This document shows positions 3,618 through 34,694 of a stretch of 64,000 bases of DNA, piece by piece. Numbering within the stretch: position 1 is the stretch's first letter; each line of letters opens with the position of its first letter. Source of the DNA: Promethearchaeota archaeon (GTDB taxonomy: Archaea; Asgardarchaeota; Lokiarchaeia; Sigyniarchaeales; SOKP01); contig JAHPZA010000001.1 of NCBI GenBank assembly GCA_019058445.1, forward strand, positions 1 to 64,000, read 5' to 3'. Below the pieces are notes generated by a model that made no database searches, was not told the origin of the DNA, and saw nothing but the letters and a program-made list of their open reading frames with translations. The position numbers were made by a program, and so were the translations under genes.

Positions 3618-4859
3618 GTGGATATTATGAAACAAGAACATACTTTTAAAGTAATACTTTTAATAGTCTTTTTCTCTTCTGCTCTTATAAGCGCACTATC
3701 ACCGATGGCGATTGATATTGCGAATGCTCTACCGATAACACAGTCTCAAGTCCTTTTAATTGTTTCCATATATTTAGCAATTGGGGCGCTAACCTCGTTC
3801 ATTTGGGCGATTTTAGACATTAAATTTTCACGTAAAAAATTATTGATTGTTGCTACCTTAGATTGGACGCTGTTCACGTTTCTATCAATGTTTGCGACAG
3901 ATTTTTTCACATTGCTTGTATTTCAAATCTGCTCTGCAGTTGGCTTTGGTGCTATTTTACCCTTAAGTTATTCTACCATCGTCGATTTAATTGACCCTGA
4001 AAAAAGAGGGAAAGCATTTGGGATAAAAGAACTTTTTTACGTTTTGGGGATTGGTTTAAGCTTTCTTTTGGCAAGCTTCTTAGTACCCACATTTCCATGG
4101 ACTATTCCCTTATTGATAATCTCATTAGGCGGAGTTGTCTGCTTAATACTTTTATTCATAGTAGAAATTCCCGAGAGAGAGATTGTTGATGAAAGTGAGG
4201 CATGGATGAGTATGAAAGCTTTCAAAGAACTCTTACACAGTAAAGCAATCATGATAATTTTAGCTTTCAATCTAGTGCTGTTTCTATGGTATGGAGCAAT
4301 TACTCAATATTTTACAACACTGATGAGGAACGATTATGGATTTGTCCCTCAAATGGCATTTCTTATTTATTTAATAGTTACCTGCGGACAATTTTTTAGT
4401 GGTATCCTTTTTGGACATTTAGGAGATAAAAAATATAAAACTAATAAAAATGGACGAATAAAGGTTGTTCTACTGTGTGTTACTTGCGGTGCAATCTTAA
4501 ATTTCATAGGTTTTTCATTAATAATATCTCAAGACAACATTTTAAGCCTAATCTTATTCATTATTATAATATGGGTGGCCCTTACGTTTTTCGGGGGTGT
4601 TGATCCGCTTACCCAAGCAACTCTTTCTGATGTGACGACTGAATCCAATAGATCAACGACTTATGCTCTTAATAATTTATGCTACATTCTCGGAAGAAGT
4701 ATAAGTATATTTCTTTTGAGTATTTTTCTGCTAATGTTCAATAATTTATATAGACCAGGATATATGATATTGTCTATTTTGACGTTAATTGCGGTCATAT
4801 TTCTATTTCCCCTTATGAGAGTTTTACCAAAGGAGATAGAGAAAATGAATGAAGATTAA
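3618..4859 (+). CDS. MFS transporter
   Basis: About 12 hydrophobic segments; motif-A-like LDIKFSRK and GHLGDK; D...PEKRGKAFG. Confidence 0.85.
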   Translation: MDIMKQEHTFKVILLIVFFSSALISALSPMAIDIANALPITQSQVLLIVSIYLAIGALTSFIWAILDIKFSRKKLLIVATLDWTLFTFLSMFATDFFTLLVFQICSAVGFGAILPLSYSTIVDLIDPEKRGKAFGIKELFYVLGIGLSFLLASFLVPTFPWTIPLLIISLGGVVCLILLFIVEIPEREIVDESEAWMSMKAFKELLHSKAIMIILAFNLVLFLWYGAITQYFTTLMRNDYGFVPQMAFLIYLIVTCGQFFSGILFGHLGDKKYKTNKNGRIKVVLLCVTCGAILNFIGFSLIISQDNILSLILFIIIIWVALTFFGGVDPLTQATLSDVTTESNRSTTYALNNLCYILGRSISIFLLSIFLLMFNNLYRPGYMILSILTLIAVIFLFPLMRVLPKEIEKMNED

Positions 4860-29562: not shown

Positions 29563-30456
29563 TTAGGAAATCTGTAAACTCTTAAACACAATCTCAAAAT
29601 CAGAAAAATCAAACGGTTTTAGAATGTAGCCGTCAGCGCCCGTCTCTTCCAATTTCTTTTCTACCTCAGATTCAGGAATAGCCGTTAAAAAATAAAGCGG
29701 AATATCTTTATTTTCATCTTCTTCTTTAATTCGTTTGCAGAGATCATACCCGCTTACATCTGGAAGAATTATATCTAACAAAATCAGCTTTGGATGGGAG
29801 TTTTTTAATTCCTCATAGCCCTTTGTCCCACTGATGGCGCCTTTACAAATTACTCCTCTACTCTCGAAGAAACTCTTTATCAAGCGAATCGTAGGAAGAT
29901 CGTCCTCAATTAAGAGCACGTCGTAATCGGTTGCCTCAACTTTTATATCATCTAAAATATTGACAATCTTATTCTCAAGAAGGATACTCTGATCAAATAT
30001 GTTTTTAATTGTTGAGAGCACTTCATCATTAAGATCCTCTTTATAATTTTCAAGAAGCAACTGAGAAAATCCCTTTATCGTAGTAAGTGGTTCCTTTAAC
30101 GCATGTGAAATTTTGGTTACTGTTTGGGGATCCATTTTCAGTAAACTGTTACCTACTGTTCCGGAGGACTTATCGATAAACCTATTAACACTTTCTCTAA
30201 TAAGCTTTGAAATAGTGGAATAATCGTGCTTATCCTTAAAATCCTGCCATTTCTTTTTCGTGTCATCTGAGATATAAAGTGAAATTCTTTCTTTATCTCT
30301 ATCATAGACTTTTTCGCCATCTTTCCACTTCTTAAACCCTTCTGTTATAACTCCGCGCCATACGGCATATTTCCCTGTTTCAGCCTCGTATTCCTCCATC
30401 TCGGGCGTTTTTTCAATTTCTTCTGCATCAGGGTCGTAGCCGTTTGAGTTAGCCAT
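29563..30456 (-). CDS. RHH + HisKA + receiver-domain protein (no HATPase domain)
   Basis: RISLYISDDTKKKW...TISKLIRESV (RHH-like); SHALKEPLTTIKGFSQLL (H-box); IEDD, LLDIILPD, FLTA, KPF (REC). Confidence 0.8.
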   Translation of the reverse strand: MANSNGYDPDAEEIEKTPEMEEYEAETGKYAVWRGVITEGFKKWKDGEKVYDRDKERISLYISDDTKKKWQDFKDKHDYSTISKLIRESVNRFIDKSSGTVGNSLLKMDPQTVTKISHALKEPLTTIKGFSQLLLENYKEDLNDEVLSTIKNIFDQSILLENKIVNILDDIKVEATDYDVLLIEDDLPTIRLIKSFFESRGVICKGAISGTKGYEELKNSHPKLILLDIILPDVSGYDLCKRIKEEDENKDIPLYFLTAIPESEVEKKLEETGADGYILKPFDFSDFEIVFKSLQIS

Positions 30457-30667
30457 AATATCACCAAAATTCTATTGGATAATTTCAAAAAAAATTTTAT
30501 CAAAAAATCAAATTTTTATCAAAAATATGAACTTTCAAATTAATAGAATATTGAGTTGTTTTTAAATAATTGGTAATAAATCACTATTATAAACTTTATT
30601 GAGAAATTTAATAAGTTTCTAATAGCTAAAATTTTCAACTTGATGTGGAATTATTTGGGGTAAAAAA

Positions 30668-31615
30668 TCAGTTTTTCTTTACTAGAATGTCAAAAAGAAA
30701 ATCAAAATCAGAAAAATTAAATGGTTTCAAAATATACCCATTCGCTCCCGTCTCTTCTAAGCGACTCTCCACCTCAGAACCAGAAATCGCGGTTAAAAAA
30801 TACACTGGAATATCTTTATATAATTCATCTGATTTAAGCGTTTTACAAATATCATAGCCACTTATATCAGGTAAAATTATATCCAGTAGAATCAGCTGAG
30901 GTGTCCCATTTTTTAGCTCCTCTATACCTTTAAAGCCACTAGGAATTCCCTTACAATTAAAGCCTTTACTTTCAAAGAAACTCGAAATTAACTTTATAGT
31001 AGATACATCATCTTCGATCAGAAGAATGTCATATTCCGAGCCTTGTCCTTTAATATTGTCCAAAAAATTGATAATCTTATTCTCAAGATGTATGCTCTGT
31101 TCAAATATATTTCTAACAGTGGACAATATCTCTTCAGAAAGATTGTCCTTATGAGTTTCAAGAAGCAACTGAGAATACCCTTTTATCGACGTTAAGGGCT
31201 CCTTAAGAGCGTGTGAGATATTGGAAACCGTACCCGGACTAATTTTATTGTTGCTCTCCTCAATAAAATGGCTCACAGACTCCCTTATGAGCTTTGAAAT
31301 GGTCGTGTATTTACTATTCTCAAGAAATTCAGTCCATTTTGTTTTGGTCTCGTCTGAGACGTATAAAGAGATACGTTCTTTGTCCCGATTATATACTTTT
31401 TCTCCTTTCTGCCATCGTTTAAAACCTTCAGTTACGACGCCACGCCAGACAGAATAACGTCCTGTTTCCTGCTCATATTGTATCATCTCAGGTGTTTTTT
31501 CTATAGTTTCTTCCTCTGTTGCTTCCTCTGCGTTATTTATCAATTTGTTGTTTGGGTTGTTATCTGGATTTTCAATGAGCTTATCTTCAGGCATATCTTT
31601 CTTTATTTGAACCAC
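30668..31615 (-). CDS. RHH + HisKA + receiver-domain protein, tandem paralog
   Basis: Same architecture and near-identical motifs as 29563-30456. Confidence 0.8.
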   Translation of the reverse strand: MVQIKKDMPEDKLIENPDNNPNNKLINNAEEATEEETIEKTPEMIQYEQETGRYSVWRGVVTEGFKRWQKGEKVYNRDKERISLYVSDETKTKWTEFLENSKYTTISKLIRESVSHFIEESNNKISPGTVSNISHALKEPLTSIKGYSQLLLETHKDNLSEEILSTVRNIFEQSIHLENKIINFLDNIKGQGSEYDILLIEDDVSTIKLISSFFESKGFNCKGIPSGFKGIEELKNGTPQLILLDIILPDISGYDICKTLKSDELYKDIPVYFLTAISGSEVESRLEETGANGYILKPFNFSDFDFLFDILVKKN

Positions 31616-32023
31616 TTTTTTTTGGACCGTATTTTTTTTTTACATTTACATTTTTTTACAAAATTTTCGTTAGATAATTTTAAAAATTGTACCCGACCGA
31701 AAAAATACTCTTATCTTCAGAAACTTATTACGTACTCCTAGTAAGAGTTTTTAAATATAAATTTACTTATAACCAAAGAAAAATTTTGTGTGTTTATTTT
31801 TGATTTTTACATATTTATTTTTTTGTCGTTTTGGTTTCTTCTAGTTTGTTCACAAATTTAAAAAAAATTTGAACACTAAAAAATGGTAATAAATGCTAGT
31901 TTAACACATTTATTTAAAAAAAGTTGTTTGAAGAAATATTGTGTGTCACCAGTAGTAACAAATTTTGAACCAAAGCATTTAAATATGAAGCCATAATTTT
32001 TTATATTATCAAAAAAAGGTTTT

Positions 32024-32065
32024 GTGTGGTAAAAAAATTCTAGTTTTTACCAAAAAGTGTGGTAA
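32024..32065. promoter_or_regulatory. Inverted/direct repeat cluster upstream of tfb (candidate operator)
   Basis: TGGTAAAAA-8-TTTTTACCA perfect IR (32027-32052); GTGTGGTAA direct repeat at 32024 and 32057. Confidence 0.35.
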
Positions 32066-32150
32066 GAAAAAACGAATTGTTAAAAATTACCCAAAAAAAT
32101 CAAAATAATATTAATGAAATAATAATAATCTAATAACAGGGGTTTTAGGC

Positions 32151-33032
32151 ATGGTTGTAGAATATGATACGGTTTCAAATTTTTGTCCAGAATGTGGGGG
32201 TTTAACGCAAGTTTTTTACGAAAGAGGAGAGACAGTATGTAAGGCTTGCGGTCTGATAGTTGATGAGCGCGGTCTTGACTTATCTCATAGTGGGATAAGG
32301 GCATACACAAAGCAAGAAAAAGATAAGAAGGAAAGAACAGGATGTCCTATTTCAATTTTAATGCCTGACATTGGATTGAGTACGGTGATCGACCGAACCA
32401 AAATTAAGAATCCAGATTTACGAAGGGCGGCAAAGTGGAATACACATATGACATGGGAAAAGAGGAACATGCTAATCGCTATTACGGAGCTAAAGAGGAT
32501 TGGCAGCAACTTGAATTTTCCCGAGCGCGTAAAGAAGGCGGCAGTTCGGCTTTACAAGGAAGTGTTTAAAAGAAAACTATTGCGAGGCAGATCGATAAAT
32601 GGTATGGTTGCGGCTTGTGCGTATTTTGTGTGCAAGGAGGAGAAAGTACCCATTACGCTCCAAGAGATTTTAGACGAGGCATCCATAAACCAAAACATTG
32701 TAAAAAAGTGTTATAAAATTTTAGTAAGAGAGTTGAATTTAAAATCGCCTCATATCGATCCGGTTTCATTGATTCCAAGGTACTGCGCCGATTTAGGCCT
32801 GGGGATTGATGTAGAAAAAGAGACGATAACGGTATTACAGAAGTTTATCGCAAATTCATCCATCTGCGGAAAGGATCCAAAAGGATTATGTGCTGGGGCA
32901 ATTTATTTAGTTGCCAAGCTCAAAAACAGAAAAATCAGTCAAAAGGAAATCAGTCGGGTTATCAACGTCACGGAAGTGACCTTACGTTCCCGATATAAAG
33001 AGCTTTTAAATGGTATTAGTTTTAATTTCTAA
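32151..33032 (+). CDS. tfb: Transcription initiation factor IIB (TFB)
   Basis: CPECG...VCKACG Zn ribbon, RTG.P, two cyclin repeats (RGRSI..., GKDP.G..A, VTEVTLRSRYKEL). Confidence 0.93.
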   Translation: MVVEYDTVSNFCPECGGLTQVFYERGETVCKACGLIVDERGLDLSHSGIRAYTKQEKDKKERTGCPISILMPDIGLSTVIDRTKIKNPDLRRAAKWNTHMTWEKRNMLIAITELKRIGSNLNFPERVKKAAVRLYKEVFKRKLLRGRSINGMVAACAYFVCKEEKVPITLQEILDEASINQNIVKKCYKILVRELNLKSPHIDPVSLIPRYCADLGLGIDVEKETITVLQKFIANSSICGKDPKGLCAGAIYLVAKLKNRKISQKEISRVINVTEVTLRSRYKELLNGISFNF

Positions 33033-33293: not shown

Positions 33294-34694
33294 ATGAGTA
33301 CGGAATGGGAAGATGAAAAGGTATCGATTGGGAAAAGGACGTCATACTCGATGATATGGCTGTTTGATTATATTGTAATAGCAGGTCAATTGTTATTGCT
33401 ATTCCACTATTACCAGGTCGAGATCGGATTATCTACTGCTTTAGTGGGTCTTGCGTTTACAATCTTCGCAGTATGGAACATGATTAACGACCCTCTCATT
33501 GGGTTCCTGACCGATAAGCCCATGCGATGGTCGAAAAAATGGGGGTTGCGGATGCCGTGGATCATTATTGGAGGTGTTCTTACTACACTGTTTTATGTCC
33601 TTCTATTCACGGTGCCTAATGTTGACCCGAAGGAGAATCCTTGGCCGATATTTTGGTACGTTGTAATCATGACATGTCTTTATGACACCTTTTATACAAT
33701 TCTTACTTGTCATGCCTACGGAGGTTTTGCTAATGTATTTCGTACTAGAGAAGATCGCAGGAAGGGTGGTACAATAGGTCAGTTCATGGGTACAGCATCA
33801 CGATTTATTATGATGGGAATATTAATTCCTCTCATTCTTGTAACCGGGGATCCCAGCACATATATTACATGTTCATTATTCACAGCTATAGTGATAGGTG
33901 TTGCTCTTATCCTTTTTATTCCTGGTATCCATGAAAGCGAAGCGGTAAAAACGCGTTATCTTGCGGTGTGGGAGTATTTAAAGGAAAGAAGATTACCCTA
34001 CTTTAAGTTCCTTAAAATCGTATTTAAACAAAGAAATTATATGTTAACTCTTTTTTCTTTCGCTATGTTCACATTTTCATATGCCTTATATTACGCAACT
34101 ACATTATATCTTATTGAGGATGTTTTACGCGTGGGTTTGGAAGCAATGGCGCTTGCTGCTATATCATATACTATAGGTTTTCTAATATCAATTTGGCTAT
34201 GGTCTCGTTTCGTTGCAGATAGATTGGGACATTCGAATACATGGGCGCTAGGTTTGGCAGCTTTAGGTGTTGCATATTTAGCTGCTATGTGGTATACGAC
34301 TGTATTTGAATATGTTCTATGGCATTTTATAGCGGGAGTAGGATCAACTGGATTTTATGCCGTTTGGCAGTCAGTTTTTTCGGATGCATATGATGAGGTC
34401 ACTGACGCAGCTGGGGTTCACCAAGAGGCGTCGCTTGTCGGAATTAATAACTTTTTCTTTCGTTTTTGTTGGGCGATTATTGGTATGGTTATGGCAGGCA
34501 TTTTTATTCTAACGGGGTATGTCCCGGGTGCGTCCGTACAAAAGCCATCTGCCCAAATGGGGATTCGGATACTTGTAGGAGGTATACCTGCAGTCTGTTG
34601 TTTCATTGGAGCTTTAGTGATAGTTTTATTTTACAATCTAAAAGGAGAGAAAAGAGAACAATTAATGAAAAGTCTGCGCGAAAAAGGGCTTTAA
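33294..34694 (+). CDS. MFS transporter, glycoside-pentoside-hexuronide (MelB/GPH) family
   Basis: WNMINDPLIGFLTD, GLRMPW, D..DE.....G...E, TGYVPG...Q...A..GIR. Confidence 0.88.
   Translation: MSTEWEDEKVSIGKRTSYSMIWLFDYIVIAGQLLLLFHYYQVEIGLSTALVGLAFTIFAVWNMINDPLIGFLTDKPMRWSKKWGLRMPWIIIGGVLTTLFYVLLFTVPNVDPKENPWPIFWYVVIMTCLYDTFYTILTCHAYGGFANVFRTREDRRKGGTIGQFMGTASRFIMMGILIPLILVTGDPSTYITCSLFTAIVIGVALILFIPGIHESEAVKTRYLAVWEYLKERRLPYFKFLKIVFKQRNYMLTLFSFAMFTFSYALYYATTLYLIEDVLRVGLEAMALAAISYTIGFLISIWLWSRFVADRLGHSNTWALGLAALGVAYLAAMWYTTVFEYVLWHFIAGVGSTGFYAVWQSVFSDAYDEVTDAAGVHQEASLVGINNFFFRFCWAIIGMVMAGIFILTGYVPGASVQKPSAQMGIRILVGGIPAVCCFIGALVIVLFYNLKGEKREQLMKSLREKGL

Follow-up and report, generated by a model that had tools for sequence, protein, structure and literature searches.

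Proteins of the kind considered here have been reported before. In their section on unfinished genomes, Galperin et al. (2018; PMC5847659) listed 'Arc-type RHH-HisKA-REC' proteins in Lokiarchaeum sp. GC14_75, in one sentence and with no analysis. These have a domain architecture identical to that of the two proteins described below and come from the same organism group, and the two proteins fall within that set of homologs; the architecture is therefore already published and is not a new find as such. New relative to that report are a small N-terminal module, a conserved tandem pair, linkage to a TFB gene (tfb), loss of the H-box His in paralogs, a derived residue at H+1 and a group of TGTGTG boxes. 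The same authors noted that recognisable DNA-binding outputs are mostly missing from archaeal two-component systems, so that the route by which signals reach archaeal transcription is largely unknown. They also described archaeal HisKA proteins without a CA domain, which retain the His and were suggested to dimerise, and REC-(PAS/GAF)n-HisKA regulators; compared with these, the present proteins have the reverse domain order (REC is C-terminal), contain no PAS or GAF domain and carry an explicit DNA-binding output.

The hybrid kinases (HisKA-HATPase_c-REC; ArcB, BarA, LuxQ and HrmK) share with the present pair, here called RHK-A and RHK-B, a canonical H-box (xHxLKxPLTxIxG) followed by a receiver, but the RHK proteins have neither a CA/ATPase domain nor a sensor, carry an N-terminal ribbon-helix-helix (RHH) domain and have a non-acidic H+1 and Glu instead of Thr/Asn at H+4. 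In NikR, PutA, AmrZ and omega, which gave the best structural matches to the RHH segment, an N-terminal RHH domain is likewise governed by a C-terminal dimerising or sensing module; in RHK this module is a two-component DHp-REC unit, and the signal would therefore be phosphorylation and not a metal or ligand. Omega also provides a precedent for the reading of short boxes, since its RHH dimer reads nonpalindromic heptad repeats (according to the entry title). Spo0B and ChpT resemble RHK in having a DHp-like four-helix bundle with a His and no autokinase activity and are placed in phosphorelays, but they own a degenerate CA-like domain and no receiver or DNA-binding domain, whereas the His is dispensable in many members of the RHK family. 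In bacteria, response regulators drive cascades of alternative sigma factors, as in the activation of sigma-factor genes by Spo0A. The RHK pair would be analogous in that the gene of an alternative promoter-recognition factor comes within reach of a phospho-controlled regulator, although TFB is no sigma factor and its regulation by the pair is one that we infer.

The window analysed (64 000 nucleotides of an archaeal contig) contained the pair on its minus strand, with the following genes and, for RHK-B, domains.

29563..30456, minus strand: RHK-A, the tfb-distal paralog (297 residues; ORF list, Pfam and the distal clade in the tree)
30668..31615, minus strand: RHK-B, the tfb-proximal paralog (315 residues; proximal clade, support 89/98)
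31388..31498, minus strand: N-module of RHK-B (residues 40–76; predicted helix, beta-hairpin, helix)
31256..31387, minus strand: ribbon-helix-helix domain of RHK-B (residues 77–120; fold model and structural matches)
31046..31237, minus strand: DHp/HisKA helical hairpin of RHK-B (residues 127–190; His135, codon 31211–31213)
30674..31027, minus strand: receiver domain of RHK-B (residues 197–314; phospho-acceptor Asp245, codon 30881–30883)

The start codon of RHK-B is ambiguous (GTG at 31615 or ATG at 31591, eight codons further in). RHK-A comprises the N-module, RHH, DHp with His118 (codon 30103–30105) and REC with Asp228 (codon 29773–29775), in that order, and is 65% identical to RHK-B across 272 residues. 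HisKA (PF00512) was matched at 31.3 and 34.5 bits in the two ORFs (Pfam cutoff 26.9 bits) and Response_reg (PF00072) at 74.5 and 76 bits (gathering score 30.2 bits); HATPase_c was found in neither protein by Pfam at E ≤ 1. In the AF2 model of RHK-B the DHp helices span residues 127–154 and 161–190 and strand 1 of the receiver starts at residue 197, and a CA domain cannot fit into the intervening six residues. The full-length model had a pTM of 0.42, which was counted against its packing of the domains. The top NCBIfam models matching the RHK proteins in two stretches were those of hybrid kinases (HrmK, ArcB, LuxQ and BarA). The preliminary description of both ORFs as RHH-DHp-REC proteins with no ATPase domain, which was made from the letters of the window, is upheld by these matches together with the fold model of the RHH. 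The shared small N-terminal module that it pointed out (YE.ETG.Y..WRG..TEGFK.W) is real and is kept in orthologs. This module belongs to no Pfam family, occurs separately in other proteins and gave no usable match as a query against the ESM Atlas. Its identification as a fragment of a WGR domain, raised by a PDB profile match to the WGR region of PARP1 (E = 0.26), was rejected because no member matches Pfam WGR; an RNase H1 N-terminal (Cauli_VI) hybrid-binding domain was also rejected, as it was matched by one distant protein at E = 0.0028, no stretch of which was significant, and by none of 23 members.

The segment preceding the DHp had been called RHH-like, and structure prediction now argues for a ribbon-helix-helix domain at this position. 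The N-terminal model that includes it had a pLDDT of 88, and almost all of the ∼50 best VIA-align matches were RHH proteins, among them NikR, CopA, TacA, ParD, PutA, omega, Arc and AmrZ (r.m.s.d. 1.4–2.5 Å over 42–49 residues; all rows cover model residues 38–87 only); the Z scores of up to 5.8 are, in absolute terms, modest for a domain of 45 residues. Rows 1, 2, 4, 6, 8 and 12 of the Foldseek output were RHH domains (PrpA, ParD2, NikR, ParD1 and ParD). In RHK-B the predicted layout is a strand (ERISLYVS), helix A and helix B starting from a TTIS N-cap, with the strand extended and unpaired in the monomer model. Profile methods gave less: Pfam RHH models had no match in the two window proteins at E ≤ 10, RHH_1 was matched by two of 23 family members (best E = 6e-4) and RHH_3, RHH_5 and RHH_6 gave one weak match each, while a PDB profile search returned ORF56 and ArtA weakly (E = 0.3–0.5) and one JGI annotation names CopG/Arc/MetJ. 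The strand, with its alternation of polar and hydrophobic residues, and the helix-B N-cap are invariant in the 34 tfb-linked orthologs. Among paralogs the strand varies (RIGILVS, RINILVS, RVSLYVP), a pattern that diversification of DNA specificity would produce.

The RHH-DHp-REC family occurs only in a single class of Asgard archaea, with nearly all members in a single order; it is present in 133 of the 134 genomes of one GTDB family, and the queries used here found no member in the three genomes of the sister family f2 that are each a single contig (4.4, 6.0 and 4.3 Mb). A wide spread through Asgard archaea suggested by NCBI names (Thor-, Hod- and Hermodarchaeota) was rejected: at least two such contigs belong to the window's own GTDB genus, so the NCBI taxon labels of family members are unreliable. 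In the tree the RHK-A and RHK-B clades predate the split of the genera: the tandem duplication is ancient, and the two paralogs have kept their positions ever since. The two clades differ at only four positions, none of which lies within the RHH. The source genome contains four further RHH-DHp-REC paralogs.

In HisKA proteins the acidic residue at H+1 acts as the autokinase base, and Thr or Asn at H+4 is the phosphatase residue. The H-box of both RHK-A and RHK-B reads SHALKEPL, and the Ala at H+1 pointed out in the preliminary description was confirmed. The 34 tfb-linked orthologs all share the His and the whole H-box, with H+1 always Ala, Thr or Ser; other paralogs retain Asp or Glu at that position, and Ala at H+1 is specific to the tfb-linked pair. 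H+4 is Glu throughout the family. The pair thus departs from a functional HisKA-HATPase_c kinase in its missing CA domain, its nonacidic H+1 and its lack of Thr/Asn at H+4. The receivers are intact, as described earlier: Glu201/Asp202/Asp203, Asp245, Thr275 and Lys297 are invariant in the 34 orthologs, and the Asp is kept in all 32 divergent family members in which it was assessed. The expected conservation of the His among homologs was found in every tfb-linked ortholog and fails beyond them, where it is replaced by Tyr, Phe, Leu, Arg, Val, Glu, Asn or Lys in about 11 of 30 divergent members, including a paralog of the source genome on contig C6. With the His lost in about one-third of the divergent members and the Asp universal, phosphotransfer through the His cannot be the core function of the family. 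The invariance of the H-box in the tfb-linked clade nevertheless exceeds the needs of dimerisation, so that His chemistry may matter there; the residue is perhaps an accessory of this subclade, serving reversible His-Asp transfer or docking of the receiver.

The gene divergent from the pair is as follows.

32151..33032, plus strand: divergent TFB paralog (Zn ribbon and two cyclin-like TFIIB repeats; Pfam)

It scored 246 bits against the archaeal TFB model (NF001658/PRK00423; curated cutoff 384 bits), which two other TFB copies in the source genome pass with 459 and 436 bits; with the repeats and Zn ribbon present and the score below the cutoff, it is a divergent, noncanonical TFB paralog, one of about a dozen. 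The earlier identification of a divergently transcribed TFB gene thus stands. Conservation of its linkage to the pair held in part. The pair adjoins tfb in 26 of the 33 assessable genomes of the GTDB family, where the linkage is accompanied by a locus-specific box; it does not extend beyond this family, as no RHK homolog in the sister families f29 and f2 lies beside any TFB gene, and one genus within it (g4) keeps the pair while the TFB ortholog is missing. The two genes are moreover part of a wider block, GatD-L2-TFB-RHK-RHK-JAB, that is syntenic across the family; an MFS gene and similar insertions occur elsewhere in this block and never between RHK-B and tfb (18 loci). A second RHK-TFB pair, on contig C9, was not accepted as independent proof of coupling, since the two genes are adjacent only in the source genome, lie ∼10 kb apart in two congeners and are absent from other genera; its support for coupling is weak.

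The intergenic region shared by RHK-B and tfb contains the following elements.

31616..32150, no strand: shared divergent control region (535 bp; boxes TGTGTG[TG] at 31787, 31940 and 32023)
31977..31985, plus strand: TATA element ATTTAAATA of the tfb promoter (conserved in an alignment of 18 orthologous upstream regions)
32023..32062, plus strand: promoter-proximal pair of boxes, GTGTGGTAA twice, 33 nt apart, a candidate operator

A fourth box (GTGTGG) lies at 32057, a BRE-like A-rich AACCAAAGC precedes the TATA element, and the first GTGTGGTAA of the pair begins 46 nt past the TATA start. The density of TGTGTG is 2.2 per kb in the 18 orthologous intergenic regions, 0.19 per kb in the window and 0.068 per kb in the noncoding DNA of the genome; the shared region is ∼80-fold enriched and heads the genome's 2,049 intergenic regions. 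Boxes occur on both its tfb and its RHK side, and in nine loci a box lies 41–47 nt downstream of the tfb TATA element. In genus g4, which has no linked tfb, each locus has a single TGTGTG box 179–186 bp upstream of the first RHK gene, and the RHK promoter repeats the TATA-plus-45-nt layout of the tfb promoter; in the absence of tfb, then, the box stays with the RHK genes. A strict regular expression for the extended box gave 20 matches in the whole genome and no obvious regulon. Other 'two-box' intergenic regions were discarded: in most of them a single TGTGTGTG, lacking the T-rich and A-rich flanks, had been scored as two boxes. No RNA family was recognised by Rfam in the intergenic regions.

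Each of the four other paralogs in the source genome lies within ∼3 kb of a complete PAS/GAF-HisKA-HATPase kinase, two of them directly adjacent, and MCP-signal proteins are also found around the paralogs. HATPase_c was matched 37 times in the genome, mostly in large PAS/GAF kinase ORFs; the 205-kb contig bearing the RHK pair has no kinase gene, and the RHK-tfb locus offers neither a linked Hpt nor a linked stand-alone receiver as a partner. In genus g4 the two RHK genes are separated by a full kinase gene or by what is left of one. A 109-residue HATPase_c ORF at this position, considered as the stand-alone CA domain of a split kinase, is a remnant of the full PAS kinase, which is intact in genome G040 and carries an internal stop in G129; it was treated as gene decay and not as design.

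Very probably, then, the RHK proteins are DNA-binding regulators controlled by phospho-Asp. The DHp-like hairpin may be the remnant of a hybrid histidine kinase whose ATPase domain was lost; it would form a four-helix bundle joining two chains, so bringing two RHH halves together as one DNA-reading beta-ribbon, with the C-terminal receiver attached where a kinase would have its CA domain, beside the H-box. Classical PAS/GAF histidine kinases would phosphorylate the receiver in trans, at Asp245 of RHK-B or Asp228 of RHK-A, and this could alter its packing on the DHp and thereby change how the RHH is arranged or oligomerises and how tightly it binds DNA. The likeliest targets are the TGTGTG(T/G) boxes in the control region of the RHK genes themselves, and the case for and against these boxes being RHK sites is evenly balanced. 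They could instead serve another factor or, because transcription would run through them, be an element of a 5'-leader RNA. One box is situated at about +10 to +20 of the tfb promoter, where a bound protein would block RNA polymerase; the pair would in this way autoregulate and gate the alternative TFB. That tfb is a direct target is slightly short of an even chance, and about an even chance is given to the whole reading of the pair as dimeric, phospho-Asp-controlled RHH regulators acting on themselves and on tfb. More tentative still is the fuller proposal in which phosphorylation of the pair frees or imposes binding at the boxes over the tfb start, so that an environmental signal sets the available TFB, the His perhaps serving as an internal phosphate relay.

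The preliminary description had seen in the pair phosphorelay proteins, phosphorylated in trans and possibly heterodimerising, that control tfb, and this interpretation is partly supported. If the DHp His were an obligatory station for transfer from Asp to His or from His to Asp, the invariance of the H-box in the tfb-linked orthologs, the receiver in the CA position beside the His and the fixed positions of both paralogs would be accounted for, the joint loss of the acidic H+1 and of Thr/Asn at H+4 would fit a site for transfer only, and phosphoacceptor or phosphotransfer roles have been raised for CA-less HisKA proteins (Galperin et al., 2018). An obligatory station is nevertheless improbable in view of the many divergent members that have replaced the His and kept the Asp and the lack of a linked Hpt or stand-alone receiver, and the four positions that separate the A and B clades give no sign of a specialised heterodimer interface. 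A role outside transcription, with the pair as phosphate sinks, phosphatases or adaptors whose DHp-REC part drains or dephosphorylates regulators or kinases and whose RHH-like segment makes protein contacts, is suggested by the kinases and MCP-signal proteins around the paralogs and by the possible phosphatase activity of HisKA on response regulators, which Galperin et al. (2018) proposed for CA-less HisKA. It is highly improbable, given the Glu at the phosphatase position, the conservation of the RHH strand and helix-B N-cap (DNA-contact elements that are among the best conserved parts), fold matches to DNA-binding RHH domains throughout and the existence of a locus-specific repeated box.

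It is also conceivable that the pair adjoins tfb by neutral synteny, regulating other genes or only itself, with the tfb-side boxes read by another factor or forming an RNA leader. The wider syntenic block, the f29 and f2 homologs that adjoin no TFB, the g4 pair that stands without a TFB ortholog and the restriction of the C9 adjacency to the source genome would all be explained in this way. We consider this unlikely: the tfb promoter and the g4 RHK promoter carry the same box at the same spacing from TATA, boxes stand on both sides of the shared region, that region is the foremost box-bearing one in the genome, and the insertions that interrupt the block elsewhere have spared the RHK-B–tfb interval. 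The RHK pair may well switch on or off both itself and the adjoining gene for a spare transcription-initiation factor.

Among archaeal two-component systems the RHK family is a clear exception in having an explicit RHH output, as judged from its predicted fold. It occurs in the prokaryotes most closely related to eukaryotes, and the pair stands head-to-head with tfb in most genomes of the GTDB family. If the link is real, it would offer a testable path from a kinase to the choice of general transcription factor in Asgard archaea and an instance of a transcription factor that has taken over the DHp domain of a kinase as its dimerisation scaffold. One family of Loki-type Asgard archaea would then have a two-component signal wired straight into its basal transcription machinery, an archaeal counterpart of the bacterial cascades from response regulator to sigma factor, with an RHH output and a dimerisation module derived from a kinase.

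The tandem RHH-DHp-REC proteins RHK-A (tfb-distal) and RHK-B (tfb-proximal) are encoded by ORFs on the same strand, separated by 211 bp, and lie divergently to a TFB gene.

29563-30456, minus strand: RHK-A, 297 aa
30668-31615, minus strand: RHK-B, 315 aa
32151-33032, plus strand: tfb, 535 bp upstream of RHK-B, encoding a TFIIB zinc ribbon and two TFIIB repeats (Pfam)

RHK-A and RHK-B share 65% identity. In both proteins HisKA and Response_reg scored above the Pfam gathering thresholds and HATPase_c (the CA domain) gave no match. Their best NCBIfam matches were response regulators, and those with two matched stretches were hybrid kinases, for example HrmK, ArcB, LuxQ and BarA. The DHp helices (127-154 and 161-190) of the RHK-B AlphaFold model lead directly into the receiver, with strand 1 at 197, so that the model leaves no room for a hidden ATPase domain. 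The preliminary description of two HisKA-REC proteins without an ATPase domain beside a divergent TFB-type gene was thus borne out by Pfam and by the model. The RHK proteins are unusual response regulators. RHH-HisKA-REC proteins were stated to occur in Lokiarchaeum sp. by Galperin et al. 2018 (PMC5847659), beyond which no further mention of the architecture was found in the literature searched; in a table from 2023, the accession of a Lokiarchaeum HisKA-REC protein is consecutive with that of a large PAS kinase, which suggests that the two genes are adjacent. The architecture is thus known, yet uncharacterised.

No Pfam RHH model was matched by RHK-A or RHK-B, even at E<=10, and RHH_1, RHH_3, RHH_5 or RHH_6 was matched by a few family members. 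A fold model of RHK-B residues 40-126, built with 23 homologs (pLDDT 88), gave the order helix, beta-hairpin, helix, extended segment over ERISLYVS and two helices. Structural comparison with ~48 000 PDB representatives returned almost exclusively RHH proteins (NikR, CopA, TacA, ParD, PutA, DinJ, TraM, omega, AmrZ, Arc and ParG), all on model residues 38-87 (Z <=5.8, r.m.s.d. 1.4-2.5 Å); RHH domains also occupied rows 1, 2, 4, 6, 8 and 12 of the Foldseek result, and a PDB profile search gave in-register alignments to two RHH proteins, ORF56 and ArtA, with non-significant E-values. The RHH, originally proposed from its likeness in sequence, was accepted as a predicted fold.

The N-module, a conserved segment of ~37 residues directly before the RHH, was assigned to no family; WGR and Cauli_VI were weak leads that did not hold. 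It gave only 96 matches among 1.8 billion representatives searched and is separable: it occurs twice without an RHH in the protein P0183, is flanked by two RHH copies in P0135 and, in P0186, which has neither RHH nor HisKA, has an Arf-like GTPase on one side and a receiver on the other. On the evidence of P0186 it is an independent, mobile unit linking Asgard GTPase and two-component signalling. P0186 (415 aa) joins the small GTPase, the N-module (YEEETGKYAIWRG..TEAFKKW) and the receiver in one protein.

Of 201 genomes sampled phylum-wide, only those of the window's GTDB family gave matches to the full-length proteins (37/40 genomes at E<=1e-40), and two copies nearly always lie side by side; the window's own genome contains six full-length copies. 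A search of 400 genomes with a combined profile for N-module and RHH matched 133/134 genomes of this family, 4/4 of a sister family, 7/14 of a third family of the order (patchy and mostly weak) and, as a single weak match, another family of the class. It gave zero matches in ~240 genomes of other Asgard classes and none in three single-contig genomes (4.4, 6.0 and 4.3 Mb; G276, G277 and G282) of sister family f2. Some homologs carry the NCBI names Thorarchaeota or Hodarchaeota; two such contigs (P0069 and P0073, loci L005 and L004) fall in the window's own GTDB genus, and the NCBI phylum labels of these MAGs are unreliable and inconsistent.

The H-box S-H-x-L-K-E-P-L-T-x-I-K-G and the catalytic residues of the receiver were invariant across 34 orthologs, all with A, T or S at H+1. 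The receiver Asp was kept in all 32 more divergent members, whereas the H-box His, which the preliminary description had expected to be conserved, was replaced in ~11/30 of these, including the paralog on contig C6 of the window's genome (SYEFKEPL); H+4 was Glu almost everywhere among them. The loss of the His amounts in part to the outcome that was to refute the preliminary interpretation. Thus the constant of the family appears to be a phospho-Asp switch, the His being optional. The Ala at H+1 holds for the pair but not for other paralogs, which keep an acidic residue (SHDLKEPL, SHELKEPL), and is a derived feature of the pair linked to tfb. In a gene tree built from 18 loci, copies proximal to tfb from all genera grouped together (support 89/98, in 91% of bootstrap trees), which places the duplication before the genera, both copies having stayed in place. 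The two clades differed at only four positions, Y/F147 in DHp helix 1 and 210, 300 and 310 in the receiver, and none in the RHH or N-module; RHK-A and RHK-B should read the same DNA.

The window's genome contains 13 TFB-like genes, a multiplicity on a scale resembling that of haloarchaea. Two copies passed the cut-off of the archaeal TFB model (459 and 436 bits) against 246 bits for the window copy, which on this score is a divergent paralog; it is one of five genes in a divergent subgroup and is conserved across the family at 75-97% identity. The proposed linkage held in 26/33 assessable genomes, in which the tfb ortholog directly adjoins the RHK pair in divergent orientation, but the block GatD-L2-TFB-RHK-RHK-JAB is syntenic as a whole. 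The ortholog lies 3 kb and 10 kb from the pair in two genomes, is carried by a different, small contig in another and is missing from the four genomes of genus g4, and in the sister families no TFB adjoins the RHK homologs and a close ortholog of the window TFB is also absent. The linkage is genuine, though phylogenetically shallow. RHK and TFB genes adjoin a second time on contig C9, flanked by two kinases, an arrangement specific to the window's genome. An MFS_2 transporter gene (33294-34694) separates tfb from rpl2 in the window and in its closest relative (L001) alone; the other syntenic loci reaching rpl2 lack it in this gap, which makes it a recent insertion.

Upstream of tfb a BRE/TATA element, …AAC(G/C)AAA..ATTTAAATA, was common to 16/18 aligned loci. 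In nine loci a box, TTGTGTG(T/G)(A/TC)AAAA, starts 41-47 nt downstream of the TATA start (window, 46 nt), which places it at about +10 to +20 of the predicted tfb promoter, where archaeal repressors commonly act. The TGTGTG core occurs at 2.2/kb in the 18 upstream regions versus 0.19/kb in the window, and the 7-mer TGTGTG[TG] at 0.068/kb in the non-coding DNA of the genome, where the control region (31616-32150) ranks first of 2049 intergenic regions. No Rfam family was matched in this region.

31787, 31940 and 32023: three separate TGTGTG[TG] boxes
32057: GTGTGG

Boxes are also present on the RHK side. In g4, without a linked tfb, each 6-10 kb locus has a single box. It is found 179-186 bp ahead of the first RHK gene and is preceded by a TATA element in the same 45-nt arrangement, so that the box accompanies the RHK genes. 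This is the best evidence, indirect as yet, for binding of the RHH proteins in the control region and for tfb sharing their candidate operator. A 36-nt direct repeat (31757-31792 and 31993-32028; copies 75% identical) was also observed, with TTTTGTGTG at the end of both copies. Since its downstream copy fills the interval from the tfb TATA to the box of that promoter, its upstream copy may constitute another promoter-operator module on the plus strand.

The genome yielded 37 HATPase_c matches, mostly within large PAS/GAF kinase ORFs and none on the 205 kb contig of the pair. Each of the four other paralogs has complete PAS/GAF kinases within ~3 kb, directly adjacent in two cases, and MCP-signal proteins adjoin two of the four. 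In g4 the two RHK genes flank a PAS-PAS-HisKA-HATPase kinase gene in one genome; in three others this has decayed to a CA remnant of 109 aa, and one of the three carries a stop codon (TGA, interrupting the kinase).

L036:3988-5994, minus strand: intact inter-RHK kinase, 668 aa
L035:3835-4164 (minus), L038:4022-4351 (plus), L037:~3755-4080: in two genomes a 109-aa ORF with only the N, G1, F and G2 boxes, in the other an interruption by TGA

The 109-aa ORF represents either ongoing kinase decay or a free CA domain. RHK phosphorylation would most naturally come from classical kinases acting in trans. The C9 locus (L021, C9:664000-678000) is a compact signalling island of a 1299-aa PASx5-GAF kinase, a 247-aa RHH-DHp-REC protein without the N-module, a divergent 296-aa TFB paralog and, immediately following the latter in the same orientation, a 546-aa GAF-PAS kinase, with which it may form a TFB-kinase operon. 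PAP2-family phosphatase genes adjoin two different RHK paralogs [L022:5187-5831(+) and L023:6995-7945(-)], MCP-signal-domain genes [L022:6945-9243(-) and L024:5399-6244(-)] lie beside two, and a 435-aa Gtr1/RagA-like GTPase gene [L035:5308-6615(+)] is directly downstream of a g4 RHK pair.

The sequence observation was confirmed and the phosphorelay interpretation built on it is supported in part; obligatory His phosphotransfer and heterodimer function, although possible in the tfb-linked subclade, are unsupported as features of the family. The RHK protein is most likely a dimeric RHH regulator controlled by phospho-Asp, in which the kinase-derived DHp would serve as a scaffold; the pair would autoregulate and probably gates the divergent TFB paralog in most genomes of its family.
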